Source: an uncultured Gammaproteobacteria bacterium (lineage in GTDB: Bacteria; Patescibacteriota; Patescibacteriia; CAZSQN01). From it: DNA of 64,000 nucleotides. The notes under the pieces were generated by a model. That model did not search any database. It saw only the letters and a program-made list of their open reading frames with translations, and was not told the DNA's origin. How positions within the stretch are numbered: position 1 is the first letter of the stretch; the number at the start of each line of letters is the position of its first letter. Location: assembly GCA_964609095.1 (NCBI GenBank), contig CAZSQN010000002.1, positions 152,066 through 216,065 of the forward strand. The letters are read 5' to 3'. The translations under genes were made by a program, and so were the position numbers. This document shows positions 4,740 to 63,234 of this stretch, piece after piece.

Positions 4740-4835
4740 CCCCGCACATAAATCTATTTAATAATTAAATAGATGACATTATAATTTTTTTATTTTCCCG
4801 CATCCTATTCGTACTAAATAAATTTATGTGCGGGG
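4740..4835. repeat. 96-bp intergenic cassette bounded by 12-bp inverted repeats CCCCGCACATAA...TTATGTGCGGGG, containing a TATAAT box
   Basis: Seen directly. About 80% identical to the copy at 59068-59167. On the minus strand the TAA of its 5' arm is the asnB stop codon and its 3' arm is followed by T then the ATG of the next gene. Confidence 0.75.
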
Positions 4836-6674
4836 TTTCAAATATAAATTATGCCAGACCTGAAATGTCATCAGCGCCCAGATTGTGTTCAAACCGTAAA
4901 CTCTCATTTCCTTATGGTCATCCAAGATTTTAGAAATCGCCGCAAAATCAAAATACGCGTCCGTGCCGGCAGTATATGACGGACTCAAAATTTCTCCGGC
5001 AAACTGATATAATTCCCCTCTTATCCATTTGGCGGCGGGAGAAAAAAATCCCCGTTTTTTTTCTTTAGCCACGAAATCCGGAATCAGGCCGCCGATGGCT
5101 TGACGAAATATCTTTTTACCCAATATCCGCGATTCCAGCTTGTATTTTGACGGGATAGAAAAAGCAAGCTCCGCGAGCCGATAGTCCAATATCGGCACGC
5201 GCTCTTCAAGCGCGAAAGCCATAGACAGCTTGTCTGAACGGATAAGCGACTCGTCAGTAAGCCATGTTTTCACATCCGCCATCATCATCTGATTGGTAAA
5301 ATCTTTTTCTATGTTTTCAAAATATGGAGCAAATGCCCGCGCGGCGGCTTCGGGGCGGCTAACGTCTTTCTTTAAAAATTTTCCGACTTTTTCTTCTTTC
5401 TGCGCCATAAAAGAAAAAAACCTGTCCAAGCCCTGTTTTGCCTGAACCTTTTCCAAAAACGTCGTTCTGCCGGTAATGTTTCCCAAAAATGAAAGCAGCA
5501 TGGGATTAAGAAGCGGCGCCGGCAAAGACCCGATCTTATCAATGACCGAATTATAATAATATCTGTCATAGCCGCCGAAAAGCTCGTCGCCGCCGTCTCC
5601 GCCTAAAACAACATCAACCTTCTTTTTGGCAAACTGCGAAAGCAGATAGGTGGCCGGCTGAATGTGGTTGCTTACCGGCTCATCCATATGATAAATAACT
5701 TTTTCAAAACAATCCCGCGTGCCATTCGCGGAAATTTTTAAAGAATAGTGGTCGGTTCCAAAATGTTTGGCGATTCTCTCCGCCAGATAAAAATCGGCGT
5801 TGTATCTTTCCTCCTGAATGTCAATATCAAAGCCGACCGAAAATGTTTTAATCTTTCCGGGAATTATTTCCGCCATCGCGCCCAACACCGCGGTAGAATC
5901 AATGCCGCCGGAAAGAAAAACGCCCAAAGGACGGTCCGAAATCAGCTGTCTTTTAACCGCGTCCCTGAAAAGAGCAAGAATCTGCTCTTGCGCCTCGCCT
6001 CTCCCAAGCTCTTTTCCGCTTTTTAACTCCCAATACGGAGCCGTCTTCAAATCCCCATTTTTCAAAACCGCGAAATTGCCGGCGGGCAATTTAAAAATAT
6101 TTTTCCAGATAGTTTTGGGCGCGGGAACGTAAAGAAAGCGGAAATAAACGTTTAAGGAATCCAAATCAATTTCTCGCGGCACATTATGGCGAAGAATGGC
6201 TTTTATCTCGGAAGCAAAAATAAATTTCTTTCCGTCCCAGTAATAATAAAGCGGCTTTACTCCCAGATGGTCGCGCGCCAAAAAAAGCTCATTTCGTTCT
6301 TTGTCCCAAACGGCAAACGCGAAAATGCCGTTTAATTTTTTTATTGATTCTTTGCCCCACTCCGCGTAAGCGGCGAGCAATGCTTCCGTATCGCTTTTGG
6401 ATTTAAACGAATGTCCTTTTTTCTCTAATTCCTCTTTCAATTCCTGAAAATTGTAAATCTCGCCGTTAAAAGTGATAGTATATCGCCCGTTCGCGTAACT
6501 CATCGGCTGATGCCCCAGAGGCGAGAGGTCAATAATGGAAAGACGGTTATGACCCAAAGAAATTCCGGGCGCGCTAAAAGTTCCGGCGTCGTCAGGCCCG
6601 CGGTGATTTTGAATCGCAATCATCGCTTTTAATTTTTCTTCATCCTGAAAATTAAATCCGGAAATTCCACACAT
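4824..6674 (-). CDS. asnB: asparagine synthase (glutamine-hydrolysing), AsnB/WbpS-type amidotransferase
   Basis: MCGI N-terminal Cys nucleophile and SGGIDS PP-loop. Confidence 0.85.
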   Translation of the reverse strand: MCGISGFNFQDEEKLKAMIAIQNHRGPDDAGTFSAPGISLGHNRLSIIDLSPLGHQPMSYANGRYTITFNGEIYNFQELKEELEKKGHSFKSKSDTEALLAAYAEWGKESIKKLNGIFAFAVWDKERNELFLARDHLGVKPLYYYWDGKKFIFASEIKAILRHNVPREIDLDSLNVYFRFLYVPAPKTIWKNIFKLPAGNFAVLKNGDLKTAPYWELKSGKELGRGEAQEQILALFRDAVKRQLISDRPLGVFLSGGIDSTAVLGAMAEIIPGKIKTFSVGFDIDIQEERYNADFYLAERIAKHFGTDHYSLKISANGTRDCFEKVIYHMDEPVSNHIQPATYLLSQFAKKKVDVVLGGDGGDELFGGYDRYYYNSVIDKIGSLPAPLLNPMLLSFLGNITGRTTFLEKVQAKQGLDRFFSFMAQKEEKVGKFLKKDVSRPEAAARAFAPYFENIEKDFTNQMMMADVKTWLTDESLIRSDKLSMAFALEERVPILDYRLAELAFSIPSKYKLESRILGKKIFRQAIGGLIPDFVAKEKKRGFFSPAAKWIRGELYQFAGEILSPSYTAGTDAYFDFAAISKILDDHKEMRVYGLNTIWALMTFQVWHNLYLKPRT

Positions 6675-6854
6675 AATACAAATATATTGACTTTTTAATC
6701 TGTAACAATTAGCAGGGGGAACAAATTTTTTGCAGACGTTGCTGTCCGAGGCAAGCCGAGAAGCCCGGCGTTAGATTAAGGATGAGGGCTTCGAGGCCGG
6801 TCGAGCGTCAGCGAGAGCCAAGTTCAATGGCAAAAAAATTTGATTCCACGAGCG

Positions 6855-16852: not shown

Positions 16853-17176
16853 CCCCGCACATAATTTAGGTTATGTGCGGGGCATACCCCGCACATAATT
16901 TGCTTAATCCAACACATAATTCAGATTATATGTTGAATCTGATAATTAGATAATATACCTCCCCGCATTCTTACAAACAAACTGAATTATGTGCGGGGTG
17001 ATAAACTTCCTCTCATTATGGGCGCAAAAGTACGAATTGTCAATGCGGTTAAAATGTCTTATAGTTAAACGAACAGTATGCCCCGCACATAACTTTGCCT
17101 ATTATAGCGTGGTGCGGGAAAGTAAAAAGATTAAAATATTGTTTGTCTGATTTTATTAAGTAAATTATGTGCGGGG
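16853..17176. repeat. divergent-promoter intergenic region packed with six copies of the 12-mer unit CCCCGCACATAA/TTATGTGCGGGG
   Basis: Copies at 16853 (C form), 16871 (G form), 16887 (C), 16987 (G), 17081 (C), 17165 (G). 16853-16882 is a perfect 12-bp-stem hairpin. 17081-17176 is a 96-bp cassette resembling the 4740-4835 element. Both flanking start codons abut a unit. Confidence 0.75.
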
Positions 17177-17177
17177 T

Positions 17178-18344
17178 ATGAATAAGCCCAAAATACTTTA
17201 TCTCATTACTCAAGCCGAATGGGGCGGCGCCCAACGTTATGTTTTTGATTTGGCAATCGCTTTTAAAACGGAATTTGACGTGTCTATCGCGGCTGGAGCC
17301 GAAAATGGCGACGATTCGCTTTTAAGGCGATCCCGAGACAACGGAATACGCACAGTTGAAATTTCAAACCTGCATAGAGAGATACGGCCAATTGAAGATA
17401 TCCGCGCGCTTTTAAAAATACGTTCACTGCTTAAAGAACTTAAGCCGCAAATACTTCATCTAAACAGCGCCAAAGCAGCCGTCCTCGGAACTTTGGCCGC
17501 GGCTTGGACAGGAATAAAAATAGTTTATACGGTGCACGGCTGGTCGTTTCTCGAACCGCTTTCAATATGGAAAAAGGCGGCCTATCTTATTTTTGAAAAA
17601 ATATCTTGTTCGTTTGGCCGCGAGGCCACCATACTTTTAAGCCAAAAAGAATTGGCGGCCGCCAAAAAATACGGATTGAATTGCGGCGAAACAGAAATTA
17701 TTTTTCATGGAATTGCTCCGCCGGCATTTTTGGACAAGGAAACCGCCTTGCAAAAATTAAACGAACATCTGCAAAAACCTCTGCCCAAAAATGCCCTTTT
17801 AATAGGCACCGTCGCCAACCTTTATGAAACAAAAGATATCGCCAACCTCATCGAGGCGTTAAAAGGCGTAAATGAAAATTTTATTTCAATCGTCATCGGA
17901 ACAGGGCCTTTATTTGGCCGCCTTAAAACATTGATTGAAGAGGAAAAACTTTCAAACCGCGTTATTTTGGCCGGAAAAATCATACCGGCAACGGAGATAT
18001 TAAAATCCTTTGATATTTTTGTCCTGCCATCGGCCAAAGAGGGTTTCCCCTACGCGATTTTGGAAGCCATGGCCGCCGGACTGCCTATTGCCGCCACTTC
18101 CGTCGGAGCCATTCCGGAAATGATTGAAGATAAAAAAAGCGGCCTTATAGCGCCGCCTAAAAACCCGGGCGCGCTTAAAACCGCGATTGAATCGCTTTTG
18201 AAAGATGAAAATCTTCGTTCCTTGCTCGGCCAGACAGCCGCAAATGAATTCAAAATCCGTTTTTCAAAAGATAAAATGGTTCAAGCGACAAAAGAAATCT
18301 ATTTAAAGTTTCTTTCTGATTCGTCAAAAAGCAGGGAAATCTGA
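17178..18344 (+). CDS. glycosyltransferase family 4
   Basis: MNKPKILYLITQAEWGGAQRY GT4 N-terminus. Tool start (GTG at 17169) lies inside the repeat; ATG at 17178 preferred. Confidence 0.8.
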   Translation: MNKPKILYLITQAEWGGAQRYVFDLAIAFKTEFDVSIAAGAENGDDSLLRRSRDNGIRTVEISNLHREIRPIEDIRALLKIRSLLKELKPQILHLNSAKAAVLGTLAAAWTGIKIVYTVHGWSFLEPLSIWKKAAYLIFEKISCSFGREATILLSQKELAAAKKYGLNCGETEIIFHGIAPPAFLDKETALQKLNEHLQKPLPKNALLIGTVANLYETKDIANLIEALKGVNENFISIVIGTGPLFGRLKTLIEEEKLSNRVILAGKIIPATEILKSFDIFVLPSAKEGFPYAILEAMAAGLPIAATSVGAIPEMIEDKKSGLIAPPKNPGALKTAIESLLKDENLRSLLGQTAANEFKIRFSKDKMVQATKEIYLKFLSDSSKSREI

Positions 18345-20734
18345 GCCATAAATGTCGGATTCTTGCGGACATTTCTATCGGGATATGCGCGATAAATCGC
18401 GGCTATAATCTCCCGCGCCTTTTCCCGCTCGCCGCGATTTAAAAATATTCTGCTTAGCAAAACAGAAGTGTATGGTTCAGATTTAACCTGCGCCGCGTAA
18501 CGTTCCACCCACGATGGATCTTTTACCGGATTGCCGGTTTTGTCCGCCAAATTCATAAACAAAACCATTTGCTCGTAAATAACCGGAGTAAAACCGCCGT
18601 CTAAAGATTTTTTCATTGCCTTATAAGCGGCCGAATCGTCGCCTTTAGCGGCCAATCCGATTCCTTCCCACCACAATGCTTCAACCTCGTCATTGTTTTG
18701 CCTTGCCAACGAAATATAAAGCTCCATCTCCTGCGGCATCCAGAGCGCAAACGGCGAACCGTAATCGTAACGGAGCGCGCTTCGCATTTCCTTATACGCG
18801 TCTTTGGGAAAATTCGCCCTGGCAAGCGCTTCGCCGTAGCGCCAGCGCGCTTCGGGCACGCGCTCATATAATTCCACCGCCTGCCTGCCCAGCTCTACTG
18901 CGTTTTCCGTCTGGCCTTTAATCAAGTAAAGCCGCATCAAAGTAAAATAAATCTGCTGCCGCTTGGGAGAAAGCTCTTTGGCTTTAAGCAAGGACTCTTC
19001 CGCTTCAAGATAATATGAGGGACCCAGAACCGAGGCCATCAACATGCTCCAGCGCGCCAAATTCATCATATAATAAGTATCGTTCTGGTGCGCCGCCGAG
19101 CTTTTTTTATACTCGCCATAAACATCATTAATCATCTTTTCGGCGTCGCCGCGGCTCAAATTTGACGCACCCTGGAGAATGGCCACGACCAATTTGGAAA
19201 GTTCGTCGCGGCTTTCCTGCCGGTAAGGGCTTGGTTTTTGAAGCGCGTCATAAATTTTGTCGTAAGAGGCCCGCGGATTTTGCGCAAAATTAACGCCGGC
19301 GGAGATGGTCGCGGCCGAAACGGAAAAAGGAATAACATTTATAAAAATTGACAAAATCAGCAGACCCAAGGCGCCGCCCATGGCCATGGCAATGCGCGCG
19401 GGCGGCTCCAGCCGCAAAAAAGCCGGCTGCTTTTCTGATGCCTTTTTTGGAGCCGTATCTTGCGCCGCCAGAATATGGGCATAACCCAAAAAAGCATACA
19501 GCGTAATCCAAATGCCCAGGGTGTCAAAAGCGAAAAGATTCTGCACGAAATAACCGAGCAGAGCCGCGAGCATTACGGCGCTAGGCCATTTTTGCTCCGG
19601 ACGCCGGCTTTCGCGGAAAAATTCCCGCGCGGCAAAAACAAATACGGATAAATAAGCAGCCAGTCCCAAAATGCCGCTGTCATTAAGCTTGTCAATTAAA
19701 AAATTGTGAGAATGGTCCTGCCAGGTCTCGTAAGAGCCGTAAGCGTAAAATTTCGGATCATAATATCTGTTAAATCCGTAATAATAATTTTCCGGCCCCC
19801 AGCCCAAAATCGGCCTGTGCGCCCAAGCGCGAAGCCCGACTTTCCAATTCATCAGCCGCGTCTGGGCGGTATTGGTGCGCAGATTTAACTCGGCCACCTG
19901 ATGCAAAAATTTGCTGTTCTGCGCCAAGCGCGTGCCGGAAATTAAAAAAACAAAAGCGACTAAAACTAAGGGCAGCGCGGCCGCCGCCAAAGAAACGCGG
20001 GGGCGCGCCTTAAAATTTTTTGCCGCCCGGAAAAGAAAGATGAAAACAAGAGAAACGACGATGGCAATAAGCGCGCCTCTGGTCTTGGCCCAGGAAAAAG
20101 CGACGAATTCAAGTCCAAGCAATCCCAATAACGCCAATTTCAAACCGATTTTTTTCTCGCCGGCGATATACCACGCGAGCAGATACATCTGCATCAAAAG
20201 ATAAGCGGAAAGGTAAATGGCGTTTCCAAAAGTGCTGTAAATGCGCCCGCCTTTGGTTTCGTGAAGAAACGAGGGGGAAAAATATTGAATAAATCCTATA
20301 AGCGTCACCGCGGCTCCGGCAACAATGGCATAAGCAAATAATTTCCGCCATTCATCCTTTGTTCTGTAAATGCTTACGGCCATAAGCGCGAAAAGCGCCA
20401 CATGCGCGTACATAAAAAGCCCCATCATCCGCTCATGATTGCCCCAAAAACTGCGCAAAGGGTCAATGGAAAAAATAGTGGCGAACGTCTCTATAATCAA
20501 AAGAGCGATGATGGAAATAAGAATTTTGGTTTTCCGCGGACGATAAGCCGGGGCCGTCAGCATCAGATACAAATACGGAATCGCCAGCAGTTCCACTAAA
20601 AATCTGAAGGCCAGAGATTTCGGGAAAATAAAAGGAAATATCGTTGCCGAGGTATAGATAAGCGGAACAAAAAATACCAGCCCCACGCCAACGCGCAAAA
20701 ATTTAACTATGATTGTTTCTATTTTATTATTCAT
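18299..20734 (-). CDS. Wzy_C (O-antigen ligase/O-oligosaccharyltransferase-like) polytopic membrane protein with C-terminal TPR repeats, paralog 1
   Basis: About 12 TM helices, LGWGPENYYYGF and WQDHSHNFL motifs of the Wzy_C family, C-terminal TPR-like repeats. Its 3' end overlaps the convergent GT4 gene by 46 nt. Confidence 0.7.
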   Translation of the reverse strand: MNNKIETIIVKFLRVGVGLVFFVPLIYTSATIFPFIFPKSLAFRFLVELLAIPYLYLMLTAPAYRPRKTKILISIIALLIIETFATIFSIDPLRSFWGNHERMMGLFMYAHVALFALMAVSIYRTKDEWRKLFAYAIVAGAAVTLIGFIQYFSPSFLHETKGGRIYSTFGNAIYLSAYLLMQMYLLAWYIAGEKKIGLKLALLGLLGLEFVAFSWAKTRGALIAIVVSLVFIFLFRAAKNFKARPRVSLAAAALPLVLVAFVFLISGTRLAQNSKFLHQVAELNLRTNTAQTRLMNWKVGLRAWAHRPILGWGPENYYYGFNRYYDPKFYAYGSYETWQDHSHNFLIDKLNDSGILGLAAYLSVFVFAAREFFRESRRPEQKWPSAVMLAALLGYFVQNLFAFDTLGIWITLYAFLGYAHILAAQDTAPKKASEKQPAFLRLEPPARIAMAMGGALGLLILSIFINVIPFSVSAATISAGVNFAQNPRASYDKIYDALQKPSPYRQESRDELSKLVVAILQGASNLSRGDAEKMINDVYGEYKKSSAAHQNDTYYMMNLARWSMLMASVLGPSYYLEAEESLLKAKELSPKRQQIYFTLMRLYLIKGQTENAVELGRQAVELYERVPEARWRYGEALARANFPKDAYKEMRSALRYDYGSPFALWMPQEMELYISLARQNNDEVEALWWEGIGLAAKGDDSAAYKAMKKSLDGGFTPVIYEQMVLFMNLADKTGNPVKDPSWVERYAAQVKSEPYTSVLLSRIFLNRGEREKAREIIAAIYRAYPDRNVRKNPTFMAQISLLFDESERNFK

Positions 20735-23015
20735 TGTTGTTGTTTAATTTCTCATTTTCGCGGCGGCTGATTTCCTCCAAAAAAGCTTGCGCTTCGGCCG
20801 CGTAACTTGAATCCAAGCGAACCGCTTCCGCCGCGGCTTTCCGCGCCTTGCCAAATTCGCCAAGTTCAAGCTCAACTACGGCAAGCTGGCCAAAATAATT
20901 TACATCGTCATCTTCCAGCTTGATGTCGGCCAAAAGCAAAACGCGCAAAAGCTCATAATCGCGCTCTTGTGCCGCCAGATCAGCCGCGAACTTTCTTTCT
21001 TTGGAAAGAAGGGGCAGATAATTAAATTTGTCTTTATCAACCAAAACTCCGTCAATCAAATCGTAATCAATGGTTTTTAACTCTTTGCCCAAAAGCGCTT
21101 GCCGCCATTCGCGAAGCGCTTTGCCGTTTTCCCCATTATAAGCATAAGCAATGCCCAGCCGCCAGCGCGCTTGGCCGATGTCGGGATTAAAACTTATTGC
21201 TTTCTCCAACAGCGATACGGCTTCGCCTATTTGCCGTTTTAGATATTTTACCGACGCCAGCTGGAAAAAAAGCGCTTGCCGCCGAGGCGAGTATGGCTCG
21301 GCCGCCGCGTAGGCCTCTTCGGCGGCGTTAAGGTCCTCCGGACCGAAAAGGATCGCGCGCTCAAGATACAAATTTCCCAATTCATAGCGATAGGCAAAGT
21401 CGTTTGGCGCCTCATTGATGTTTTGTTTCATTTCCAAAATAGCGCGGTCCAATAAAACCCTGGCGTCTTCTTTAGTCATGGAATCCGCGTCTTCAAACAC
21501 TTTGTTGGCCAGCCGCAAACGAAAATCGCGGATTAAAGAGGGCTTAAAACCGCTTGCTTGCTCAAACAAAACCAGCCCTTCTCGCGCCGCAAGAGGCGGC
21601 AGCAGTTCAAAAGCAAACATTCTCTTGGCGGCTCGCGCGTTCGCGAGCGTGGGCGCAATGGCCAAAACGGCGAGAAGGCAGCCCAAAATCAAACCCGGAT
21701 AATAGCCCCCTTTTGGTTCTGCTTGTTTTTCCGTCTCTCCGCCGGCTGGCAGAGCATACGCGGAAGAAATATACGCCAAAACAAACATCAAATAAATCAA
21801 GCTGGTCGGCGAATCAAAAGCGAAAAAATTCTGCGCGGCATAAGCGGCAAGCAAAGAGGCCAGAATCGCGCCCTCATTTTTGCTTTGATTTTTATTCTTC
21901 ACGCTTTTGATGATGGCCAAAATCGCGGCGACAAAAATGCCCAGATAGGCCAAAAATCCCAGAACGCCGCCCATAACCAGCATATCCAAATAAGTATTAT
22001 GGCTTCTGTCAGACCATGTTTCCGACACGCCGAATTTGAGCAGAGCCGGGTCATATTCTTTGTCAAAAGCGTAATCAAAATTTTCCCAGCCCCAGCCCAA
22101 AGCTGGCCGCTCGCCAAAAGCGCGAAGCGCCGTGCCGTATATCAGCAATCTCTGATTTGAACTGGCTTCTTGCAGGCCAAGATTTGTAAAACGTCTGACC
22201 GTATTGATTGTCGTTTGGTTGCCGGCGGCGTAAAGAATAATAACTAACATCAGCATTGCCGCGACAATAGAACCGATTTTTAAAACCGCGGACTTGCGTC
22301 GCTCTTTCGGCTGCAAGATTGTGAAAGAAACAAGAGTGAAAAGCGCGCCGGCAAGAAATCCAAAAAACGCGCCGCGGCTCTGGGCAAAAAGCAAAGCGAC
22401 AAAAATCAAAATGGAGGAAGCCAAAAACAAAAAACGGTTTCTTTTCCGGGCGGATAAAAATAACTTGGCTGAAATAAAAAGCGGGAAAAGAAGATAACCG
22501 CCGTAAAATATGGGATTGCCCAAAGTTCCCCCGACGCGGCTGCCGCCTGTTCGCGCGTATTCCCCTATGCCCAACATGGCCATTAACACTCCGACGGCAA
22601 CAGCTAATAACAAAAGCTGTTTTTTTGCCGCCACAGAACGGCTAAAAGCGAAAAAAAAGATAAAATACGCGGCCAGATAATGAAAAAAATTAAAAAGCCC
22701 CAGAACGCGGTTGTCGCTTCCCCAAAAACTCTGATAAAAATCAATTCCCGTTATCGCCGTAATCGCCAAAACAGCGACAAAAATCAATAAAGCCGCCGCG
22801 ACGGGATTATTTCTTATGATTCGCTCGCGCCGGCGCCAAAAAAATACGGCTCCGAGCGCGGGCAAAAGCAGGGCGATAATAATCTGAATAATCACGGCCT
22901 TGCCCAAAACATCGGGATAAAGAACCCTTGGCAAGACATAAAACGGCGCGAGCAAAAGCAAACACGCTCCGACAAACGTTATTTTTTCTAAAATCTGATA
23001 TTTGGATTTTAACAT
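20727..23015 (-). CDS. Wzy_C + TPR membrane protein, paralog 2
   Basis: LGWGWENFDYAF, WSDRSHNTYL; same architecture as neighbours. Confidence 0.7.
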   Translation of the reverse strand: MLKSKYQILEKITFVGACLLLLAPFYVLPRVLYPDVLGKAVIIQIIIALLLPALGAVFFWRRRERIIRNNPVAAALLIFVAVLAITAITGIDFYQSFWGSDNRVLGLFNFFHYLAAYFIFFFAFSRSVAAKKQLLLLAVAVGVLMAMLGIGEYARTGGSRVGGTLGNPIFYGGYLLFPLFISAKLFLSARKRNRFLFLASSILIFVALLFAQSRGAFFGFLAGALFTLVSFTILQPKERRKSAVLKIGSIVAAMLMLVIILYAAGNQTTINTVRRFTNLGLQEASSNQRLLIYGTALRAFGERPALGWGWENFDYAFDKEYDPALLKFGVSETWSDRSHNTYLDMLVMGGVLGFLAYLGIFVAAILAIIKSVKNKNQSKNEGAILASLLAAYAAQNFFAFDSPTSLIYLMFVLAYISSAYALPAGGETEKQAEPKGGYYPGLILGCLLAVLAIAPTLANARAAKRMFAFELLPPLAAREGLVLFEQASGFKPSLIRDFRLRLANKVFEDADSMTKEDARVLLDRAILEMKQNINEAPNDFAYRYELGNLYLERAILFGPEDLNAAEEAYAAAEPYSPRRQALFFQLASVKYLKRQIGEAVSLLEKAISFNPDIGQARWRLGIAYAYNGENGKALREWRQALLGKELKTIDYDLIDGVLVDKDKFNYLPLLSKERKFAADLAAQERDYELLRVLLLADIKLEDDDVNYFGQLAVVELELGEFGKARKAAAEAVRLDSSYAAEAQAFLEEISRRENEKLNNNNE

Positions 23016-34072: not shown

Positions 34073-34226
34073 CCCCGCACATAACCCTGAACTCATTTAG
34101 GATTTCGCCAATTGTCATTCCCGCGAAAGCGGGAATCCACAATTGGCAAATTAATAATTTGAGCGCCTGGATTCCCGTTTACACGGGAATGACAGGCCAA
34201 AGTTTTTGTCAATTTTATGTGCGGGG
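34073..34226. repeat. REP-unit-bounded element (CCCCGCACATAA ... TTATGTGCGGGG) enclosing a copy of the ATTCCCGC palindromic core
   Basis: C form at 34073-34084, G form at 34215-34226, internal gtcattcccgcgaaagcgggaat...attcccgtttacacgggaatgac at 34114-34193. Lies between convergent genes. Confidence 0.7.
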
Positions 34227-35295: not shown

Positions 35296-35427
35296 CCCCG
35301 CACACAACTTGTTTAATCCAATCATATCACGAATGATATGCATTTAATTAACCAAGCCATGTTAATGATTTTTGTTTCTCATTAAGAAGAACATAAAATA
35401 TAAGCTATAAGCAGGTTGTGTGCGGGG
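35296..35427. repeat. REP-unit-bounded 132-bp element (variant arms CCCCGCACACAA / TTGTGTGCGGGG)
   Basis: Seen directly. Internal palindrome catatcattcgtgatatg. The 3' arm abuts the ATG of the HtrA-like gene. Confidence 0.65.
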
Positions 35428-47224: not shown

Positions 47225-48280
47225 TCACCTTCTTGGCAAGAGTCCTTTTGCCGCCAGCAGTTCCGCGTTTAATATTGAACCTCCGGCCGCGCCGCGAATG
47301 GTATTATGAACCAAAAGCGTGAATTTGTAATCCAAAACATTATCCGGCCGCAAACGGCCGATAACCACGCTCATCCCATCGCCCTCATTCCTGTCTTTTC
47401 GCGGCTGAGGCCGGTCATCCTCTTGGCGCAAAACAAGACAATGCTTTGGCGCGCTTGGCAGATTAAGTCCGAAAATAGACGGAACAAATTCAGAAAACGC
47501 GCGGCGCGCTTCTTCTATGGTCGCTTTGCGCTCAAATTCCGCGCTGACGCATTCCGTATGCCCGTCGCGCACGGCCACGCGATTGCAGTGCGCCGATATT
47601 CTAAACTCCGCCGGAATAAATCCTGAAGGCGACAATCCGCCCAAAATTTTTCTTGGCTCCGATTCCACTTTTTCTTCTTCGCCGCCGATATAAGGAATGA
47701 CATTATCCAGAATATCCATAGAGGCCACGCCCGGATAACCGGCGCCGGAAAGCGCCTGCATCGTCGTGACTATAACTTTTGTTATTTTAAAATTATCGTG
47801 CAGCGGCTTTAACGCCATAACCAGACCGGTTGTGGTGCAGTTGGGATTGGTAATGATAAACCCGGACGAGCCGCGGCGCTGCTTTTGCAATTCCAATATC
47901 TCCAAATGCTCCGGATTAACCTCCGGCACAAGCAGAGGCGCATCAACATCCATCCTGTGATTTTTTGAATTTGAAAGCACGGCATATCCGGCTTGCGCGA
48001 ATCTTTCTTCAATCTCTCCGGCAACGGAGGCGTCTAAGGCGGAAAAAAGCGCGTCGCAGGGAAGATTGGAATAAACATCGCTTACGGCCATGCCTTTAAC
48101 TTGCTCCGGCATTGGCTCGTCCAATACCCATTTTGTCGCTTCGGCATAAGATTTTCCGGCCGAGCGTTCAGATGCGGCAAGAGCGGTTAACTCAAACCAA
48201 GGATGATTTGACAATAATTGGACAAACCGCTGTCCGACTGCGCCGGTCGCGCCTAAAATTCCGACACGATACTTTTGCAT
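47225..48280 (-). CDS. asd: aspartate-semialdehyde dehydrogenase
   Basis: VGILGATGAVGQRF Rossmann, active-site Cys context SGAGYPG..CTTT. Confidence 0.85.
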   Translation of the reverse strand: MQKYRVGILGATGAVGQRFVQLLSNHPWFELTALAASERSAGKSYAEATKWVLDEPMPEQVKGMAVSDVYSNLPCDALFSALDASVAGEIEERFAQAGYAVLSNSKNHRMDVDAPLLVPEVNPEHLEILELQKQRRGSSGFIITNPNCTTTGLVMALKPLHDNFKITKVIVTTMQALSGAGYPGVASMDILDNVIPYIGGEEEKVESEPRKILGGLSPSGFIPAEFRISAHCNRVAVRDGHTECVSAEFERKATIEEARRAFSEFVPSIFGLNLPSAPKHCLVLRQEDDRPQPRKDRNEGDGMSVVIGRLRPDNVLDYKFTLLVHNTIRGAAGGSILNAELLAAKGLLPRR

Positions 48281-48286
48281 AAACTA

Positions 48287-48351
48287 AGCTGTTAGCTGTT
48301 AGCTTTTAGCTGTTAGAAGTTTCGTGACCCCTAAAAGCTATAAGCTAAAAG
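48287..48351. repeat. tandem-heptamer hairpin, family B copy 3, occupying the entire hom-asd intercistronic space
   Basis: agctgttagctgttagcttttagctgttag ... ctaaaagctataagctaaaagctaaag; begins 6 nt from asd ATG and ends at the hom stop. Confidence 0.75.
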
Positions 48352-49386
48352 CTAAAGTGCGCCCAGCAGCCGAAGAATGTCTCCCATCATCCCCTGCGCC
48401 GTCACTTCCGCTCCGGCTCCGGGCCCGCGGATAATGAGCGGATGGCGAAAATATCTTTTGGTGCGGATAACGGCCATATTTTCCGGGCCGGAAAGAGTGG
48501 CGAGCGGATCGCCGGAGGCGAGCGGCTCTATGGCGACGCGCGCGCCAAAGGGAGTGGCTGTCACCGCATATCCCAGTTTTTCATTGCGTTTGTATTTATA
48601 ATCCTCTTCCCGCAGATTTTCCAAAAATTCTTTTATCGGCGCTTCTTTAAGCCCATCCGGAACAAGCGATTCGGATTGAACCAGTTCGGAAGGCAGTTCC
48701 GCGCCAAGCGCGCGCGCCAAAATCAGCGCTTTTCTTTTCACATCGGCTCCGGAGAGGTCATCGCGCGGATCCGGCTCGGTATATCCGAGCTTGTGCGCCT
48801 CGCTTACGGCTTCGGAAAAAAGTTTTCCGGAAGAAACTTCGTTCATTATATATGAAAGCGTACCGGAAAGCAGTCCGCGAATATCAATAATCTCATCGCC
48901 GGAAGCGCGCAAACGTTTGATGGTTGAAATAATCGGCAATCCGCCGCCCACCGTCGCCTCATAACGAAAGTTGCGCGTCAAATAAAATTTCTTGCATTCC
49001 TCATACGGACCGGCCAGCGGCTTTTTGTTGGCCGTCACAACCGCCGCGCCGCCGTCAATAATTTTGTTCCAAAATAAACCAGTTTCGCCTGCCGTGGCAT
49101 CAACGATAAGAAGGTTGTTTTGATTAAGCGACAAAACGCTCTTGGCCAATTCTCCCAAATCTTTATTCGGCAAACTTTGCGGATGCGATGATAAACTGCG
49201 TTTTAGAACAATCTTTTGATAATCTTGCAGAGAAGTTTGCTCGTCTAAAATATAATTCTTGCTGTCGGCAATTCCAGCCAATCTGAACTTAATATCCGAA
49301 CCAAGGCCCGAGAGCTGTTTAAGAAAAGAGTTCCCCACGCCGCCAATGCCCAACAAAAATAAACTTGCGCCGTTCATACGGGGCAT
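48352..49386 (-). CDS. hom: homoserine dehydrogenase
   Basis: LLGIGGVGNSFLKQL NAD-binding N-terminus; HDH catalytic-domain texture. Confidence 0.8.
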   Translation of the reverse strand: MPRMNGASLFLLGIGGVGNSFLKQLSGLGSDIKFRLAGIADSKNYILDEQTSLQDYQKIVLKRSLSSHPQSLPNKDLGELAKSVLSLNQNNLLIVDATAGETGLFWNKIIDGGAAVVTANKKPLAGPYEECKKFYLTRNFRYEATVGGGLPIISTIKRLRASGDEIIDIRGLLSGTLSYIMNEVSSGKLFSEAVSEAHKLGYTEPDPRDDLSGADVKRKALILARALGAELPSELVQSESLVPDGLKEAPIKEFLENLREEDYKYKRNEKLGYAVTATPFGARVAIEPLASGDPLATLSGPENMAVIRTKRYFRHPLIIRGPGAGAEVTAQGMMGDILRLLGAL

Positions 49387-50762
49387 ATAAAAGCATTATG
49401 AATGGCTTTTACCGCCGCCTCCGCGTCGCTTGCGGCCACGGCAAAAGATATGTTCAGTTCCGATGAACCTTGGGCAATGGCCAAGATGTTTACTCCGGCA
49501 CCGGCCGCCGCGGAAAACGTTTTGCCGGCAATGCCCGGCGTGCCAGCCATACCCGCGCCAACTACCGACACGATGGACACGTTTTCATCCAAAATCGCTC
49601 CTTCAACCGATTTCATTTTTATTTCATTGGCAAAAGCGCGCTCCAAGGCGGCTTTAAGGCGCAGCCCGTCGGCGCGGTCAACAATCATGCAAATGCTCTG
49701 CTCCGACGACGCTTGAGTAATCATAATGATATTAGCCCGCTCGCGGGAAGCAACTTCAAAAACGGCTGCCGCAAAGCCGACGCGGCCGCGAAGCCCCAAA
49801 CCGGAAACGGTTATCAAAGATACTTTTGAAATGGCCGTGACTACTTTCACGCCTTTTCCGTTGCCGTAAGCGTTTTTGCTGATTCTCGTGCCCGATGAAT
49901 TGGGGCGAAAAGTATTTTTAATGATAATGGGAATGCCCGCGCCAAAGGCCGGAAGCATTGTTTTGGGATGGATTACTTTCGCGCCAAAATAACTCATTTC
50001 AATCGCTTCGGCGTAACTTACTTCCGATAAAATCTTCGCGTTTGGCACAATCTTTGGGTCAGCGGAAAGAATCCCGTCAACATCGGTCCAAATCTGGATT
50101 TCTTCCGCTCCAAGCGCGGCTCCGAGGATGGCGGCGGTATAATCGCTTCCGCCGCGGCCAAGCGTGGTGGTGGCGCCGTCATGGCTTCTGGCGATAAAAC
50201 CGGTAACTACGGGTATGATATTAGCCCGAAGCAGCGGCAAAATAAGGGCTCGCAGCCGTTCGTTTGTTTTTGTAAAATCCACTTCTGCCGATGTGTACGA
50301 ATCATCAGTAATAATGCCGTCGCGCGAGTCAATAGCCGCGGCGGAAACGCCGACGGAAGATACATAAGCGGCAAGAATGGGGGCGGCCATCCGCTCGCCG
50401 CATGAAGCGATTAAATCCAGCGAACGCGCCGTTAGCTCGCGCAAAAGAATCAGTCCGGAGAGCACCTGCTTTAATTCCAAAAAAATCGCGTCCAGCTCCG
50501 CTATTACTTTTTCTCTTGCTTCAAAAGAAGCCGGGACGGCCTCATAATGCTTTTTCTTCAAAGCGTCAAAACGAGACGCTGCCTCGCCGGAGGAACCGGA
50601 GGCGGCCAAACGGGCAAGTTTCAAAAGCTCGTCAGTCGCTCCGCTCATGGCGGAAGTGACGACAATCGGATGTTTCTCCCGTTTGGCAAAAACAATATCT
50701 GCCGCCTGCCTCATGGCTTCCAATGTTCCAACCGAAGTGCCTCCAAATTTCATGACTATCAT
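49374..50762 (-). CDS. lysC: aspartate kinase
   Basis: MIVMKFGGTSVG kinase N-terminus; C-terminal ACT-like region; first ATG at 50762 (tool start at 50777 is TTG). Confidence 0.8.
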   Translation of the reverse strand: MIVMKFGGTSVGTLEAMRQAADIVFAKREKHPIVVTSAMSGATDELLKLARLAASGSSGEAASRFDALKKKHYEAVPASFEAREKVIAELDAIFLELKQVLSGLILLRELTARSLDLIASCGERMAAPILAAYVSSVGVSAAAIDSRDGIITDDSYTSAEVDFTKTNERLRALILPLLRANIIPVVTGFIARSHDGATTTLGRGGSDYTAAILGAALGAEEIQIWTDVDGILSADPKIVPNAKILSEVSYAEAIEMSYFGAKVIHPKTMLPAFGAGIPIIIKNTFRPNSSGTRISKNAYGNGKGVKVVTAISKVSLITVSGLGLRGRVGFAAAVFEVASRERANIIMITQASSEQSICMIVDRADGLRLKAALERAFANEIKMKSVEGAILDENVSIVSVVGAGMAGTPGIAGKTFSAAAGAGVNILAIAQGSSELNISFAVAASDAEAAVKAIHNAFICPV

Positions 50763-50872
50763 AAAACGAAGAACCAACGGCTATGAGGCCGTTGGTTTTG
50801 TTTTTAATTCCAACCTGCCTCACTCTAAAGAGAGGTAGCTGTCGTGGTAGTGATTAAAACAAACATTTCCAT
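50763..50872 (-). promoter_or_regulatory. threonine-operon leader peptide and transcription attenuator
   Basis: 15-aa ORF MEMFVLITTTTATSL (50825..50872, minus) with ACT ACC ACG ACA in a row. Downstream hairpin aaccaacggc/gccgttggtt (50772-50797) followed by UUUU 10 nt before the ask ATG. Segment gagtgaggcaggttgg (50808-50823) is complementary to ccaacggcctca of the hairpin (antiterminator). Confidence 0.6.
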
Positions 50873-53152: not shown

Positions 53153-53655
53153 TTGCTCTAACGATTGCCTTTTTCTTTTTCGCTCTGCTTTGCGGGTTGG
53201 CTATGCGCCAAGAACCGCAAAAAGGCACGGTCTTGAACACGCTGGTCTTCGACCCTCTGATTCTGATTGTTTCCGGACTTGCCCTGGTTTTTGCGCTACT
53301 GCGGATTGCTCCGGCTAAAAATGGCCCCGCATTCAGAAAGAGACGGACGGTCATCAGAATCGTCTGCCTTGGCTTCATGGTCGCCTTCTGGACCGGCGCG
53401 GCCATGTACTATTTCGGAGTTTTGGAAAGTCCCTACCACACTCCGGGCAATGACTTTGCCTGGAACGGTTACCTGGATCTTCTGGGCCTCAAGGTCATGG
53501 ATACGGATACGCCCACCTATTACTCGTGGTGGAAGAACATCATCGCCCTGCTCCTTTTCGCAGTTCAGCCCGCTTTCTTTTGGCTTGGCTACCGCCTTGG
53601 TTTCACCATTGGCGGATTCCGGGACTTCTCGCTTTGGACTCGCCCGAAGAGATAA
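53149..53655 (+). CDS. hypothetical integral membrane protein
   Basis: 4-5 hydrophobic helices, ATGA-coupled to upstream SDR gene; last 14 codons lie inside direct repeat DR1. Confidence 0.45.
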   Translation: MIALTIAFFFFALLCGLAMRQEPQKGTVLNTLVFDPLILIVSGLALVFALLRIAPAKNGPAFRKRRTVIRIVCLGFMVAFWTGAAMYYFGVLESPYHTPGNDFAWNGYLDLLGLKVMDTDTPTYYSWWKNIIALLLFAVQPAFFWLGYRLGFTIGGFRDFSLWTRPKR

Positions 53656-53745
53656 AAATGAAAACCCCTCCGATGGACATCGGAGGGGTATTTTGTTGGC
53701 GGGATTTATTCTTGGATGTAGCGCTCTCTCCAAGCGGACACATCT
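53612..53745. repeat. 134-bp direct repeat DR1 (identical copy at 56084-56217)
   Basis: Verified by eye over its full length. Contains the bidirectional terminator cccctccgatggacatcggagggg plus the 3' ends of both flanking convergent genes. Confidence 0.85.
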
Positions 53746-55929: not shown

Positions 55930-56083
55930 GATGTTTCTCCTTTGTTATGTTTTTAACGAACTGCTTCTGCTCTCGATTTATCATGATTTCACCTTGCTGT
56001 CAATATTTCTAAATGTTTCCACATATTGCGCCGGAGATATTTTAGTTCAAAGAAGTACGCATGACGAATAAAATGCAGTTTTA

Positions 56084-56217
56084 GCGGATTCCGGGACTTC
56101 TCGCTTTGGACTCGCCCGAAGAGATAAAAATGAAAACCCCTCCGATGGACATCGGAGGGGTATTTTGTTGGCGGGATTTATTCTTGGATGTAGCGCTCTC
56201 TCCAAGCGGACACATCT
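56084..56217. repeat. 134-bp direct repeat DR2
   Basis: Identical to DR1; overlaps the last 13 codons and stop of the metzincin gene at 56178. Confidence 0.85.
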
Positions 56218-59067: not shown

Positions 59068-59167
59068 CCCCGCACATAAATTTGTTTAATAATTATACAG
59101 ACAGCATTATAATTTCTCTTTTTATTTTCCCGCACCCCGTTTACAATAAACAAATTTATGTGCGGGG
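59068..59167. repeat. 100-bp cassette bounded by CCCCGCACATAA ... TTATGTGCGGGG, paralog of 4740-4835
   Basis: Shares TIRs, the conserved core tgcgggaaaataaaaa and an attataatg box with the other copy, in the same orientation relative to the downstream start codon. Confidence 0.75.
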
Positions 59168-60873: not shown

Positions 60874-61578
60874 CTATTCAGCCACTCTGACCATGTCCGC
60901 AAATTTTTTCATTATTGTCTCAGCTTCTGGCGAGGGCGCGAGGGTATCCGCCCACTCCGGTTGGCCGCTGTCTTTGAAACGGTATTTTAAAATTTCTTCG
61001 TAATCCTCCTTGCTTCGCTCGGGATGAAATTGTACGCCGTAAACATTAGCGCCAATCCTACATGCCTGCACGGGGCATAATCTGCTTTTGATTAAAATTT
61101 CCGCGCCGGATGGCAGAGCTTCCACTCGGTCATGATGCGCCGATTGCGCGTTAAATTTTTCCGGCAGATGGCCGAATAAAGGATCGTTTTTGGCCGCGGG
61201 CAAAAGTTTCATCTCGCGCGTTCCATATTCTTTTGACGCGTCATCGCGGATAACTTCTCCGCCGCAAACACGGGTAAGCAATTGGTGGCCGAAACAGATT
61301 CCCAAAATAGGAATATTTTTTGCCAGTGCGACTTTAATAATTTTAACAAGTTCTTCCAATTTTGGAACCATAAGTCCTGAATCATTTTTAGCCACTCCGT
61401 ATTTGCTCCCGCCGATAATCAGCGCATCAGCTGACGCGACGCCATCTTTTGTTCCATCGGCAAAAAAATCAATTGATGCCAGTTCTTCCGCAGATATTCC
61501 CAAAGAGCGCAAAAACGACTTGCGTTCAAAATCAAGTTCCTTTTTTTCTTCTCGTATTTGCAGCAAACAGATTTTCAT
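60874..61578 (-). CDS. class I glutamine amidotransferase-like protein
   Basis: GICFGHQLL catalytic Cys and GVQFHPE His motifs. Confidence 0.8.
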   Translation of the reverse strand: MKICLLQIREEKKELDFERKSFLRSLGISAEELASIDFFADGTKDGVASADALIIGGSKYGVAKNDSGLMVPKLEELVKIIKVALAKNIPILGICFGHQLLTRVCGGEVIRDDASKEYGTREMKLLPAAKNDPLFGHLPEKFNAQSAHHDRVEALPSGAEILIKSRLCPVQACRIGANVYGVQFHPERSKEDYEEILKYRFKDSGQPEWADTLAPSPEAETIMKKFADMVRVAE

Positions 61579-61615
61579 CTCGTTAGAAGTTTAAGTAATA
61601 ATTATCAATTTATTT

Positions 61616-61680
61616 GTCATTCCCGCGAAAGCGGGAATCTGCGGGTTCAAATTTTGGATTCCCGCTTTCGCGGGAATGAC
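61616..61680. mobile_element. degenerate copy of the MITE-like element core (ATTCCCGC double-hairpin), TIRs eroded
   Basis: gtcattcccgcgaaagcgggaatctgcgggttcaaattttggattcccgctttcgcgggaatgac with a partial right-end match aaaaaacctaag; 38 nt upstream of the GATase start codon. Confidence 0.65.
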
Positions 61681-61739
61681 ATAAAAAACCTAAGTTCTTT
61701 CAAATCTTGATATTATTCCTTTTTTAAAAAAAAGAAAAG

Positions 61740-61773
61740 CCCCGCGCATAACTTACTTAAATTATGTGCGGGG
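61740..61773 (-). terminator. intrinsic terminator built from a REP pair (ccccgcacataa-loop-ttatgcgcgggg then cuuuucuuuuuuuu on minus strand)
   Basis: 12-bp stem with one mismatch, 10-nt loop, long U-tract; directly after the ATP-grasp gene stop. Confidence 0.65.
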
Positions 61774-61789: not shown

Positions 61790-63019
61790 TTATTTTTTGG
61801 TGGCTTCAACAGCGGATTCAAACAAGAATGCCGCTTCTTCCGCTCCCTCGGCCACGCACATAAGGCCGCACTTTGGTTCGGCAAGCGACAGGCACCGCAC
61901 GTTAAAAGGCAAAATGCCGTACTGGCCGTCAAAAAGATCGGGTTCCAATTTTGCCCGAAGCTCGGCAAAATTCCGCGCGTTTTCCGGATGCAGATTCTGC
62001 ATATGCACGGCCCAGGGCTTATGGCCGCGTTCCGCTTCAATCTGCCGCGCCAGTCCGTAGGCGTAAACCGTAGCCGTAATCCGTCCGTTGCACTCAAGGC
62101 AGAAAATATTTCCCGAGCGCGTTTTCATAAAATCAAAACCGCATATTCCGCGAAAGCCGCGCTCCCGCAAGGCCTTGGCGAGCAATGAAGATTTTTCAAC
62201 CAACTGCCCGCCATCCGCCACGGAGACCTCCGGCGGAAGCCCGGAAGAAATGATGTTGCCTTGATGGACAAAGCGCTCATCAACAAGCTGGCGGGACACA
62301 ATCAGCGGCTTCTCATCATCGCTTTCAATGTTCCAAAGAACGGAAAGAGAAAGATGTTCGTAGCCGGCTTCAAGAATGAGTTCGCGCGCCTCGCCGTACT
62401 TGGAAAAATAACTTTCCACCTGCGCCTTAAGCAACCCCGGGTTATCCGTGCGCAGTTTGACCAGTCCCAGCCCGGAGGCCAGATCGGGCCTTTTCAAAAC
62501 AATAAAATCCGGCTCTGCTTCTTTTTGCAGCATCTCTACCCCCGCAAGCGCTTCCGCCCTCTTTCGGCAGAAAACATGCGCCGGGAACAAGCCGGTTAAG
62601 CCAAGCTCCATCGCCAGTTTGCGGAGCGCGGCCTTGTTGTCAGCCAAAGCGGAAATCTCCGCCGGCGCCGAAATCGTGTCCTCCCAGCCAAGCCCCAATT
62701 GCTGAAGAAACATCTCTTCCCGCGCCGTGGAATTGAAAAACTGCAATTTTCCCCCGCCCAAAACAAAACAGTGAACAGCCGAACGCAGCTCTCCGCTCTC
62801 AAGAATGCCTTGGAAAAGGTCATCTTCGGGAACCTGAACAACGATTTCCGCGCCAATACCGATGTCATTAAGAAAACGGCGGTAATCATGAACCTCTTCT
62901 CCGGCTCGCACAAAAACAACGCCGGGAAGAAGCATGGCCCTGTCGGCGTAACGCTCTTTTCCCGGAAGCGGCAATTCCGGATAATTTGGCAGATGAATTC
63001 TTAGCGCCATCTTCTTCAC
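61790..63019 (-). CDS. ATP-grasp family ligase-like protein
   Basis: VLKRPDLASGLGLVKL and GICGFDFM...CLECNGRI resemble ATP-grasp B/C motifs; N-terminal region unassigned. Confidence 0.5.
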   Translation of the reverse strand: MKKMALRIHLPNYPELPLPGKERYADRAMLLPGVVFVRAGEEVHDYRRFLNDIGIGAEIVVQVPEDDLFQGILESGELRSAVHCFVLGGGKLQFFNSTAREEMFLQQLGLGWEDTISAPAEISALADNKAALRKLAMELGLTGLFPAHVFCRKRAEALAGVEMLQKEAEPDFIVLKRPDLASGLGLVKLRTDNPGLLKAQVESYFSKYGEARELILEAGYEHLSLSVLWNIESDDEKPLIVSRQLVDERFVHQGNIISSGLPPEVSVADGGQLVEKSSLLAKALRERGFRGICGFDFMKTRSGNIFCLECNGRITATVYAYGLARQIEAERGHKPWAVHMQNLHPENARNFAELRAKLEPDLFDGQYGILPFNVRCLSLAEPKCGLMCVAEGAEEAAFLFESAVEATKK

Positions 63020-63109
63020 GCTTCGCCTCCTTGTTAAAGAACGAAAAGACGCTCTGGTGGCAGAGCGCCCAATTATTTAAATTGTAATATAACTAAAAAA
63101 ATCTGTCAA

Positions 63110-63234
63110 CCCCGCACATAATTCTTGGATTAAAATACGCAAGGTTCAATCCTAATGACAAATTATTAAATAAAAACATTTCGTAAATCAACAAAAACGA
63201 AAAATCAATTTCGCGCCAAGAATTATGTGCGGGG
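63110..63234. repeat. REP-unit-bounded 125-bp element between ndk and the ATP-grasp gene
   Basis: C form at 63110-63121, G form at 63223-63234 (abuts the ndk stop). Confidence 0.7.

Follow-up and report, generated by a model that had tools for sequence, protein, structure and literature searches.

Palindrome-ended insertion elements at start and stop codons of a Patescibacteria genome and their probable kinship with GIY-YIG minigene cassettes

Introduction

Why does a short repeat stand flush against the start and stop codons of otherwise unrelated genes? The question arises from a stretch of 64,000 nt (hereafter the window: positions 152,066 to 216,065 of contig CAZSQN010000002.1, assembly GCA_964609095.1) belonging to a Candidatus Uhrbacteria lineage of the Patescibacteria, where a first-pass annotation had noticed a dispersed intergenic 12-mer, namely CCCCGCACATAA/TTATGTGCGGGG, and had likened it to REP (repetitive extragenic palindromic) elements of enterobacteria, with a regulatory function at translation starts in mind. 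As presented here, the link to start codons is the footprint of insertion and not a conserved regulatory code. The 12-mers are probably the terminal inverted repeats (TIRs) of insertion elements that are small (30-154 bp), code for no protein and end in palindromes, and that share their ends with cassettes of ~255-330 bp encoding a GIY-YIG nuclease; the elements would have multiplied in this Candidatus Uhrbacteria lineage, the coding cassette family (UPF0213/Slx1-like, 74-85 aa) being Patescibacteria-wide. The copies of the window are thus regarded as elements devoid of an open reading frame (ORF), akin to miniature inverted-repeat transposable elements (MITEs), to REPINs or to the intervening sequences (IVSs) of rRNA genes, and having only their ends in common with the nuclease cassettes.

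The genomes of Patescibacteria, or candidate phyla radiation (CPR), are small and often described as poor in mobile DNA, and their rRNA genes contain numerous short insertions that lack an explanation. Beyond reports on such rRNA insertions, the present element family, i.e. a bounded minigene with ORF-less derivatives at intergenic, RNase P and tRNA sites, appears undescribed: in the literature search the 12-mer was not found in any paper, and searches combining CPR with MITE or inverted repeat returned nothing relevant.

A paired intergenic repeat

With at most one mismatch, the 12-mer matches the window 20 times, against 0.40 expected; none of 100 shuffled windows reached that count, the largest being 2, and CCCCGCACATAA is the most over-represented 12-mer of the window, at a patchy density of ~0.3 per kb. 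The 18 coordinates given by the first-pass annotation were all correct and the dispersed palindrome-forming repeat it described is borne out. These 18 copies form nine convergent pairs, CCCC... always on the left and ...GGGG always on the right, all of them intergenic and spanning 30, 34, 96, 96, 100, 112, 125, 132 and 154 bp. Two further one-mismatch singles, at 15476 and 61852, are both within ORFs and probably there by chance.

Within a pair, the arms are complementary past the 12-mer, up to ~24 bp, through extensions varying from copy to copy, the element at 35296-35427 carrying the same variant in both arms (ACAA/TTGT). The three elements that start at 4740, 59068 and 17081 (the last in inverted orientation) have interiors 75-83% alike. 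Neither an ORF nor GIY-YIG similarity was significant in the element copies of the window, and an Rfam scan of the window returned tmRNA and tRNA-Pro only, with no match on the elements. In seven Logan contigs from other sequencing runs, the element spacing was identical and no within-population polymorphism was seen; several Logan contigs end near the repeats, which suggests that assemblies break there.

Regarding gene boundaries, five of the ~53 genes of the window start with an ATG at +2 from a unit (4738, 16851, 17178, 35294 and 59066). The public NCBI annotation places the starts at exactly these five ATGs and, for the M50 protease, the length of the homologs (212-213 aa) is consistent with a start at 59066. 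The tight start-codon link reported initially is confirmed, though not for the seven genes announced, since five were listed and five are found. Two stops directly adjoin units (TGA 34227-34229 and TAG 63235-63237), and another is found 16 nt away from one. Identical 4-nt flanks surround five of the nine elements (CATA/TATG in four cases, TCAA in one), each with a chance expectation of 1/256.

Empty and filled sites in syntenic relatives

Syntenic relatives were retrieved via homologs of NDK and of the M50 protease. In locus L131, where the M50 protease is 81% identical and the gene order is the same across 20 kb, there is no unit, likewise in L133, and none was found in the 4-20 kb compared in L127, L129 and L130. 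Locus L132 (74% identical) carries an 85-aa GIY-YIG ORF enclosed by exact CCCCGCACATAA and TTATGTGCGGGG and inserted at the start of NDK. With slashes marking the element boundaries, its filled site reads ...AAAAATATG/CCCC...GGGG/TATGGCC (longer right flank TATGGCCATG), and the NDK start of the window is the corresponding empty site, AAAAATATGGC (longer form ...AAAAATATGGCTTTA). At the MBL-NDK junction, L132 carries the insert and the window, L131 and L127 do not, i.e. a nuclease ORF is present or absent at one orthologous intergenic site, as for free-standing homing genes. Conversely, the start of the M50 gene reads ...tttATGCCTTTTAAT in relatives and ...gttATG/100-nt element/TATGCCTTTTAAT in the window. 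L131, L132 and L133 lack an element at the M50, NDK-stop and terminator sites, all three of which are occupied in the window; the NDK-stop site also lacks a unit in L127, as in L131, the latter having an unrelated 31-nt stretch there. After the NDK stop, L131 has a low-complexity repeat, GCTCTAGGCTTCAGG..., where the window has the 12-mer element.

The empty NDK and M50 start sites contain no hairpin, the full CCCC...GGGG unit arriving with the insert, and at both of them TATG stands on either side of the filled site; together with TIRs of 12-24 bp and a small non-coding body of 30-154 bp, target duplication (not seen at every copy) and empty orthologous sites are hallmarks of a MITE. In other words, the elements have been inserted, orthologous sites being either occupied or vacant, and in this lineage they land on T-ATG starts or directly on stop codons, with a duplication of 4 nt. 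As a consequence of this duplication, the host codon is regenerated and the element is left flush with it, and it is because insertion on a start codon duplicates TATG, as the comparison of empty with filled sites shows, that units fit so closely to start codons. The first-pass annotation had proposed that a regulatory reading would fail if copies in related genomes were not positionally conserved relative to start codons; orthologous junctions being devoid of units in the syntenic L131 and L133, that reading falls by its own test.

The 12-mer pair in other Patescibacteria

An exact 12-mer-pair scan of species-representative genomes returned 31 loci, mostly in metagenome-assembled genomes (MAGs) labelled Patescibacteria, namely Paceibacterota, Harrison-, Lipton- and Colwellbacteria as well as 'Saccharibacteria'; two MAGs with the labels Planctomycetota and Bacteroidota account for eight of the 31 loci, and MAGs labelled simply 'bacterium' for two. 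Interiors from different genomes are unrelated, their lengths clustering at 96-104 nt. Structural RNA genes are among the sites: in L013, one pair lies ~30 nt upstream of the 23S gene and another replaces a 23S helix tip (model positions ~275-290), L026 has a pair between 23S and 5S, and in L023 the P12 of RNase P RNA is enlarged, being made up of a 122-nt ORF-less element. In L009 (6364-6483) and L024 (3956-4076), the pair and ~10 further complementary bases surround a tRNA gene, an arrangement which resembles a processing stem and is kept in these two species. Viral contigs gave no 12-mer pairs, only distant partial GIY-YIG matches, and hence no sign of a phage vector.

In several of these other Patescibacteria, host genes start +38 to +46 after a unit and stop -38 to -44 before it. 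These offsets result from a hairpin of ~30 nt that separates the unit from the start or stop codon of the host gene, seen in L033, L019, L022, L030, L027, L028, L032, L005 and L014, the stem of which shows compensatory changes while the loop is conserved (TCGCTTCGCTC, outward on both sides).

The GIY-YIG minigene cassette

Two versions of the pair, 254-255 nt long (L033 5275-5529 and L019 4654-4907), enclose a 74-aa ORF opening with MYYVYLLKNN...YIGYT, which begins 2-4 nt past the left unit and stops immediately short of the right one. This ORF matches the Pfam family PF01541 (GIY-YIG), its nearest solved relatives being the UPF0213 proteins 1zg2 and 1ywl, with a faint match to Slx1. L033 and L019 come from the same MAG, where five or more ORF-less copies occur as well. 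The coding partners with identical TIRs (L132, L033, L019 and L042-L044) encode a GIY-YIG nuclease. The 100-nt element of L018/L030 keeps C-terminal codons of the GIY-YIG ORF (z = 8.7) and, therefore, ORF-less forms can arise by internal deletion.

The minigene family counts at least 399 homologs, mostly of 74-76 aa. Among 80 metagenomic loci with homologous GIY-YIG minigenes (74-85 aa) on which the cassette statistics were established, 77 ORFs have an inverted repeat, 10 nt or longer, on their two sides and abutting start and stop, with a cassette span of 253-271 nt in 47 out of 54. The general form of the repeat is ACC..GCAC(A/T)(T/C)AA, with dialects CCGAGCACATAA (the commonest), CCCAGCACATAA, CCGAGCACTCAA, CCCCTCACATAA and others, which differ by compensatory changes. 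Indeed, 13 of the 18 pairs change on both sides, with 152 such cells against 55 in shuffles and none of 500 shuffles reaching the observed value, a count that leans towards pairing as the arms were chosen for complementarity. The repeat arms thus co-vary, so that pairing is maintained. Co-divergence of repeat dialect and protein is weak, at 69.5% identity within and 63.2% between dialects. Cassettes mostly share the orientation of the gene upstream (54:3) and of the gene downstream (51:3).

Cassettes also reside inside 16S rRNA genes (L114, L109 and L107), and L108 (1480-2460) has two of them in one RNase P RNA gene, in P3 and just before the 3' ACAGAACCCGGCUUA strand. The complementarity of P1 and P3 suggests that the GIY-YIG ORF of L023 likewise sits in P3 of RNase P RNA (gene at 2461-3240). 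Hairpin-bounded inserts in rRNA helices, the mark of an rRNA IVS, thus occur in related loci only (L013 for 23S; L114, L109 and L107 for 16S), the window holding no rRNA gene.

Elements and gene boundaries in the window

The elements of the window are collected in Table 1, together with a hairpin of a second repeat dialect and the putative promoters.

Table 1. Palindromic elements and associated features of the window, by position and strand
Position	Strand	Feature	Remarks
3549..3591	-	Second-dialect hairpin CCAGCACATAA...TTATGTGCTGG	supplies the stop (TAA) of gene 3581-4738
4740..4835	-	ORF-less element, 96 nt	12-mer ends, stem to ~24 bp on - strand
16853..16882	-	Solo hairpin, 12 + 6 + 12 nt	CATA both sides; epimerase ATG 16851 at +2
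16887..16998	-	Element, 112 nt	tandem with solo hairpin 16853-16882
17015..17065	.	Putative divergent sigma-70-like promoters	TTGACA-17-CATAAT (- strand), TTGTCA-17-TATAGT (+ strand); from a consensus scan only
17081..17176	+	Element, 96 nt, inverted orientation	same family as 4740 and 59068
34073..34226	-	Element, 154 nt	directly after serine-protease gene TGA; TCAA both sides
35296..35427	-	Element, 132 nt	arms CCCCGCACACAA / TTGTGTGCGGGG; CATA both sides; serine-protease ATG 35294 at +2
59068..59167	-	Element, 100 nt, 21-bp stem	CATA both sides; M50 protease ATG 59066 at +2
61740..61773	-	Solo hairpin, 12 + 10 + 12 nt, one mismatch	followed by CTTTTCTTTTTTTT on - strand
63110..63234	-	Element, 125 nt	between NDK stop TAG 63235-63237 and -35 TTGACA of the next gene's promoter

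The element at 4740-4835 bridges two genes, the GT4 gene with its ATG at 4738 (+2) and asnB, whose stop is the TAA (4824-4826) of unit 4824-4835. The borrowing of stop codons from units, claimed at the outset for asnB and gene 3581, is upheld, through the second-dialect hairpin in the latter case. That hairpin, in the other arm of which the ORF finder starts gene 2136-3557, had been recorded as a degenerate relative at 3551-3594 and is a true one; its supposed companion at 6675-6690 is rather the ATG-TGT-GGA (Met-Cys-Gly) start of asnB. The warning that units generate spurious N-terminal extensions (MRGM...) was equally justified, as the ORF finder starts genes 3581-4747, 17169-18344 and 34227-35303 at a GTG inside the unit and the public gene call for NDK of L132 (7504-8007) has the same extension.

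Upstream of the epimerase gene, the two tandem elements have TATG repeated at every joint; the larger one includes a second-dialect half unit (CCAACACATAA at 16909) and is placed between a promoter/Shine-Dalgarno-like GAGAGGAAG region and the epimerase start. On the other side of the 82-bp gap (16998 to 17081), the inverted element has TATG flanks at 17077-17080 and 17177-17180, the second including the GT gene ATG (17178). Since the putative divergent promoters lie in this gap, both neighbouring elements would be in 5' leaders, from promoter to ATG. The element at 34073-34226 holds a nested copy of an unrelated palindrome family (ATTCCCGCGAAAGCGGGAAT).

The solo hairpin at 61740-61773, 16 nt after the gene stop at 61790, had been called a textbook terminator. 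By eye it is terminator-like, with its G+C-rich stem followed by CTTTTCTTTTTTTT, but the stem has a mismatch and the terminator consensus scan did not list it, probably on account of this internal A-C mismatch; at the matching position, L131 has a native terminator hairpin (CCCCG...CGGGG).

Other features of the window

A second, unrelated palindromic family of ~143 nt occupies 27522-27664, 37337-37479 and 61560-61702, its nested copy within the element 34073-34226 covering 34111-34195. It contains two ATTCCC-N8-GGGAAT hairpins (TGTCATTCCCGCGAAAGCGGGAATC ... GATTCCCGCTTTCGCGGGAATGACA), with eight matches against 0.34 expected, and similar sequences (GTCATTCC...) follow NDK in L129 and L130. 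Low-complexity intergenic repeats of AGCT type (AGCTTTTAGCTGTTAG...AAGCTATAAGCTATAAGCT; also TAGGGTTTAGCGTTTAGGG) are found at 31669-31727, 38391-38449, 48301-48359, 39011-39043 and 39282-39363, where the AGCT-type and TAGGGTTTAGCGTTTAGGG repeats directly adjoin gene starts and stops. Besides, a 137-nt direct duplication, 99% identical, lies downstream of two different genes (53609-53745 and 56081-56217) and contains a terminator-like hairpin, AAAACCCCTCCGATGGACATCGGAGGGGTATTTT.

Among coding sequences, four tandem paralogous ORFs of 744-811 aa with common blocks (repeat families D3, D10, D13 and D14) occupy 18299-27547 on the - strand, adjoined by a 1226-aa ORF annotated as hypothetical (27853-31533), and the ORF 44068-44433 includes three tandem copies of a 21-nt unit, TGATATCACTGGCATAAAAGG, at 44157-44225. 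The block at 44851-50777 encodes an aspartate kinase, a homoserine dehydrogenase, an aspartate-semialdehyde dehydrogenase, a GHMP kinase and a PALP enzyme (threonine synthase-like); such a threonine-pathway block is unusual for a CPR genome and is conserved in L131.

Proposed mechanism and alternative explanations

If the window elements are indeed the ORF-less kin of the cassettes, a GIY-YIG nuclease of the structure-specific Slx1-type family could mobilise both kinds of element, the ORF-less ones in trans, or trigger copying by break repair. The co-orientation of cassettes with their neighbours would reflect dependence on host transcription and, at the left ATG copy, the reading ATG-CCC-CGC-ACA-TAA, with its stop 4-8 nt before the nuclease ATG, might allow translational coupling. 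By analogy with rRNA IVSs and Correia elements, the arms are expected to fold into a long stem in the host transcript, looping the insert out, and RNase III may cut it, a stem length of 12-24 bp being enough in principle for this enzyme; such a step would make insertions in leaders or structural RNAs tolerable. Some copies may have been co-opted, e.g. 61740-61773 as a terminator. As for placement at starts and stops, it could stem either from a T-ATG-like target preference or from survival, in a compact genome, of codon-regenerating insertions only.

Several observations weigh against this explanation. The 4-nt flanking duplication is absent from four of the nine window copies, from most cassettes of other lineages and from the RNase P and 23S insertions, and some positions, such as the S3-L16 junction, are filled in several species, which could also mean vertical retention. 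No GIY-YIG gene was found in the 64-kb window or 5 kb beyond, and the interiors of the window elements compared with the GIY-YIG cassette give z at most 1.2, which is not significant, so that it is through shared ends only that these elements are traced back to the cassette. A MAFFT alignment suggesting that the interiors relate to the cassette does not survive shuffling. Regarding the RNA stem, the strand asymmetry is modest (11 G-U against 4 A-C; folding energy 8:6), and a strong sense-strand folding bias is restricted to a subfamily found mainly in or beside rRNA genes. Lastly, the 74-aa protein has no DNA-binding domain, and no GIY-YIG enzyme is known to act as a transposase.

That last subfamily, together with the co-variation of the arms, could instead speak for a signal encoded by the host, i.e. 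a conserved processing or translation signal such as an RNase III or Mini-III stem at which polycistronic RNA is cut beside the start codon, giving near-leaderless mRNAs, and which the organism would keep for the sake of gene expression; this would account for starts at fixed offsets (+2 in the window, +38 to +46 elsewhere) and for units flanking the 23S processing stem, sitting between 23S and 5S or enclosing a tRNA. Such a signal is nevertheless unlikely when units are missing at the orthologous junctions of syntenic relatives having the same start codons, serve so few genes of the window, bracket a nuclease ORF in 77 of 80 cases and surround interiors unrelated between genomes. The empty sites bear just as directly on the idea that native host hairpins (terminators or REP-like) are the targets, a GIY-YIG homing gene inserting in their loops and the 100-nt forms being decayed inserts. 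Solo hairpins do exist (16853-16882, 61740-61773 and L132 12832-12860), the site of a unit hairpin in the window is taken in L131 by the native CCCCG...CGGGG terminator, and the RNase P and rRNA insertions are in G+C-rich helices whose consensus stems also start with CCCC...GGGG; yet the empty NDK and M50 starts are without any hairpin, solo forms are rare (in ~200 kb, two short hairpins of 28 and 40 nt as opposed to 54 cassette pairs) and the 12-mer is identical in unrelated contexts across many genomes, which makes this explanation improbable too.

The E. coli dif site reads GGTGCGCATAA-TGTATA-TTATGTTAAAT, and the resemblance of the 12-mer to it, along with the 12-6-12 architecture of 16853-16882, brings to mind sites for Xer or another tyrosine recombinase, the 12-mer being a binding arm and 16853-16882 a complete 11-6-11 site. 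However, a spacer of 6-8 bp is needed and only one of the nine pairs has 6 bp, the others ranging from 10 to 130 bp (seven of the nine at 72-130); moreover, nine pairs in 64 kb contrast with one site per replicon or module, the arms bracket a GIY-YIG ORF instead of modules beside recombinase genes, and single units have no conserved XerD-like second arm next to them, all of which renders a recombination site very improbable. A DNA uptake sequence (DUS) of naturally competent CPR bacteria, comparable to the DUS pairs of Neisseria that double as terminators, is scarcely credible: while the 12-mer tops the over-represented words of the window, its inverted pairs can form a terminator and ComEC is encoded beside the window, the units come in convergent pairs only, never as singles, are essentially absent from coding sequence, are too sparse and patchy, and are lacking in close relatives. 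No Neisseriaceae DUS dialect was found in the window, where counts of the uptake signal sequence (USS) core were low. An attC reading of the 12-mer pairs was considered and set aside.

Returning to insertion elements that share their ends with nuclease cassettes, a bolder proposal can be put forward, though tentatively and with some doubt, namely that the palindrome of 12-25 bp and the 74-85-aa nuclease together constitute a complete autonomous mobile element of a new class, combining a hairpin-acting nuclease, start-codon regeneration and RNA-silent insertion; at ~255-330 bp, it would rank among the smallest known and be neither an insertion sequence (IS), nor an intron, nor a classical homing gene. 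The nuclease would then act on its own hairpin or cruciform ends and mobilise REPIN-like ORF-less copies, the element would borrow the host translation start, and the RNA stem would explain its life in 16S, 23S and RNase P RNA.

More broadly, a single element family could link the unexplained short and GIY-YIG insertions of rRNA genes, the inserts of RNase P RNA and the hairpin elements filling intergenic gaps, and pairs of ACC..GCAC(A/T)(T/C)AA offer a sequence signature to annotate such insertions. For gene calling, the units are a cause of systematic start-codon errors, in the form of GTG extensions. Should it be true that the nuclease mobilises the hairpins, the system would be a GIY-YIG counterpart of REP and its transposase, as well as a case from nature in which RNA structure renders insertions harmless, notably at start codons.

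Comparison with known systems

The analogy drawn initially with REPs and bacterial interspersed mosaic elements (BIMEs) of Proteobacteria, to which REPINs and the REP-associated tyrosine transposases (RAYTs) belong, stands for the architecture but not for membership. In both systems short dispersed intergenic repeats form hairpins as inverted pairs, a nuclease gene is flanked by the same repeats (here in the relatives), most copies by far are non-coding and the 3' ends of mRNAs are places where the repeats can act. A REP unit, though, is an imperfect palindrome of 20-40 nt with a 5' GTAG, whereas CCCCGCACATAA is not self-complementary and lacks GTAG; hairpins arise only from pairs of units, and the gene sits inside the hairpin. 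That gene encodes a 74-85-aa GIY-YIG nuclease (PF01541) where RAYTs are HUH/Y1 transposases, no Y1 transposase match being found among the proteins scanned. Furthermore, a genome carries several diverged copies of the present cassettes, which are also lodged within rRNA and RNase P genes, and insertion duplicates TATG at start codons.

In the Correia elements of Neisseria, RNase III cuts a long RNA stem, and promoters or terminators can be provided by these elements. Like them and other MITEs, the elements of the window are gene-adjacent and probably co-transcribed, of ~100-150 bp, with TIRs and a short target duplication. The differences lie in the target, which is T-ATG or a stop codon instead of TA, in interiors unrelated between genomes, and in the parentage, as no IS-type transposase parent is known and the sole coding relative carries a GIY-YIG nuclease.

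With the IVSs of 23S and 16S rRNA, as in Salmonella, Leptospira or Coxiella, the last with an S23p ORF (PMC4990558), the shared traits are hairpin-bounded inserts at rRNA helix tips, sporadic and regarded as selfish, some with a small ORF, which are thought to be neutral since RNase III excises them. Unlike IVSs, the present family also occupies gaps between protein-coding genes, interrupts RNase P RNA and encloses tRNA, its ORF is a GIY-YIG nuclease and its ends are conserved in sequence across a phylum-level radiation. Another point of comparison is a 2024 survey of CPR rRNA insertions, in the passages searched of which GIY-YIG insertions are stated to match neither intron class and to 'seem outside the context of homing', many short unexplained insertions are noted and the survey's reference 2 is cited for the GIY-YIG proteins (PMC11270868). 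As far as these passages go, its rRNA-insertion proteins are almost certainly of the same gene family as the minigene (cf. the 16S insertions of L114, L109 and L107), but they deal with rRNA genes only and make no mention of inverted repeats, palindromes or non-rRNA sites, nor do they describe the conserved repeat, the ORF-less derivatives or the intergenic, start-codon and RNase P locations (PMC11270868).

Finally, T4-like phages harbour free-standing homing endonuclease genes, Seg being GIY-YIG and Mob HNH (PMC2988022). These are likewise small nuclease genes lodged between host genes, in host orientation, and present or absent at orthologous junctions. Seg proteins, however, are of ~200 aa or more and have DNA-binding domains, and their genes come without bracketing palindrome and without a family of non-coding derivatives.

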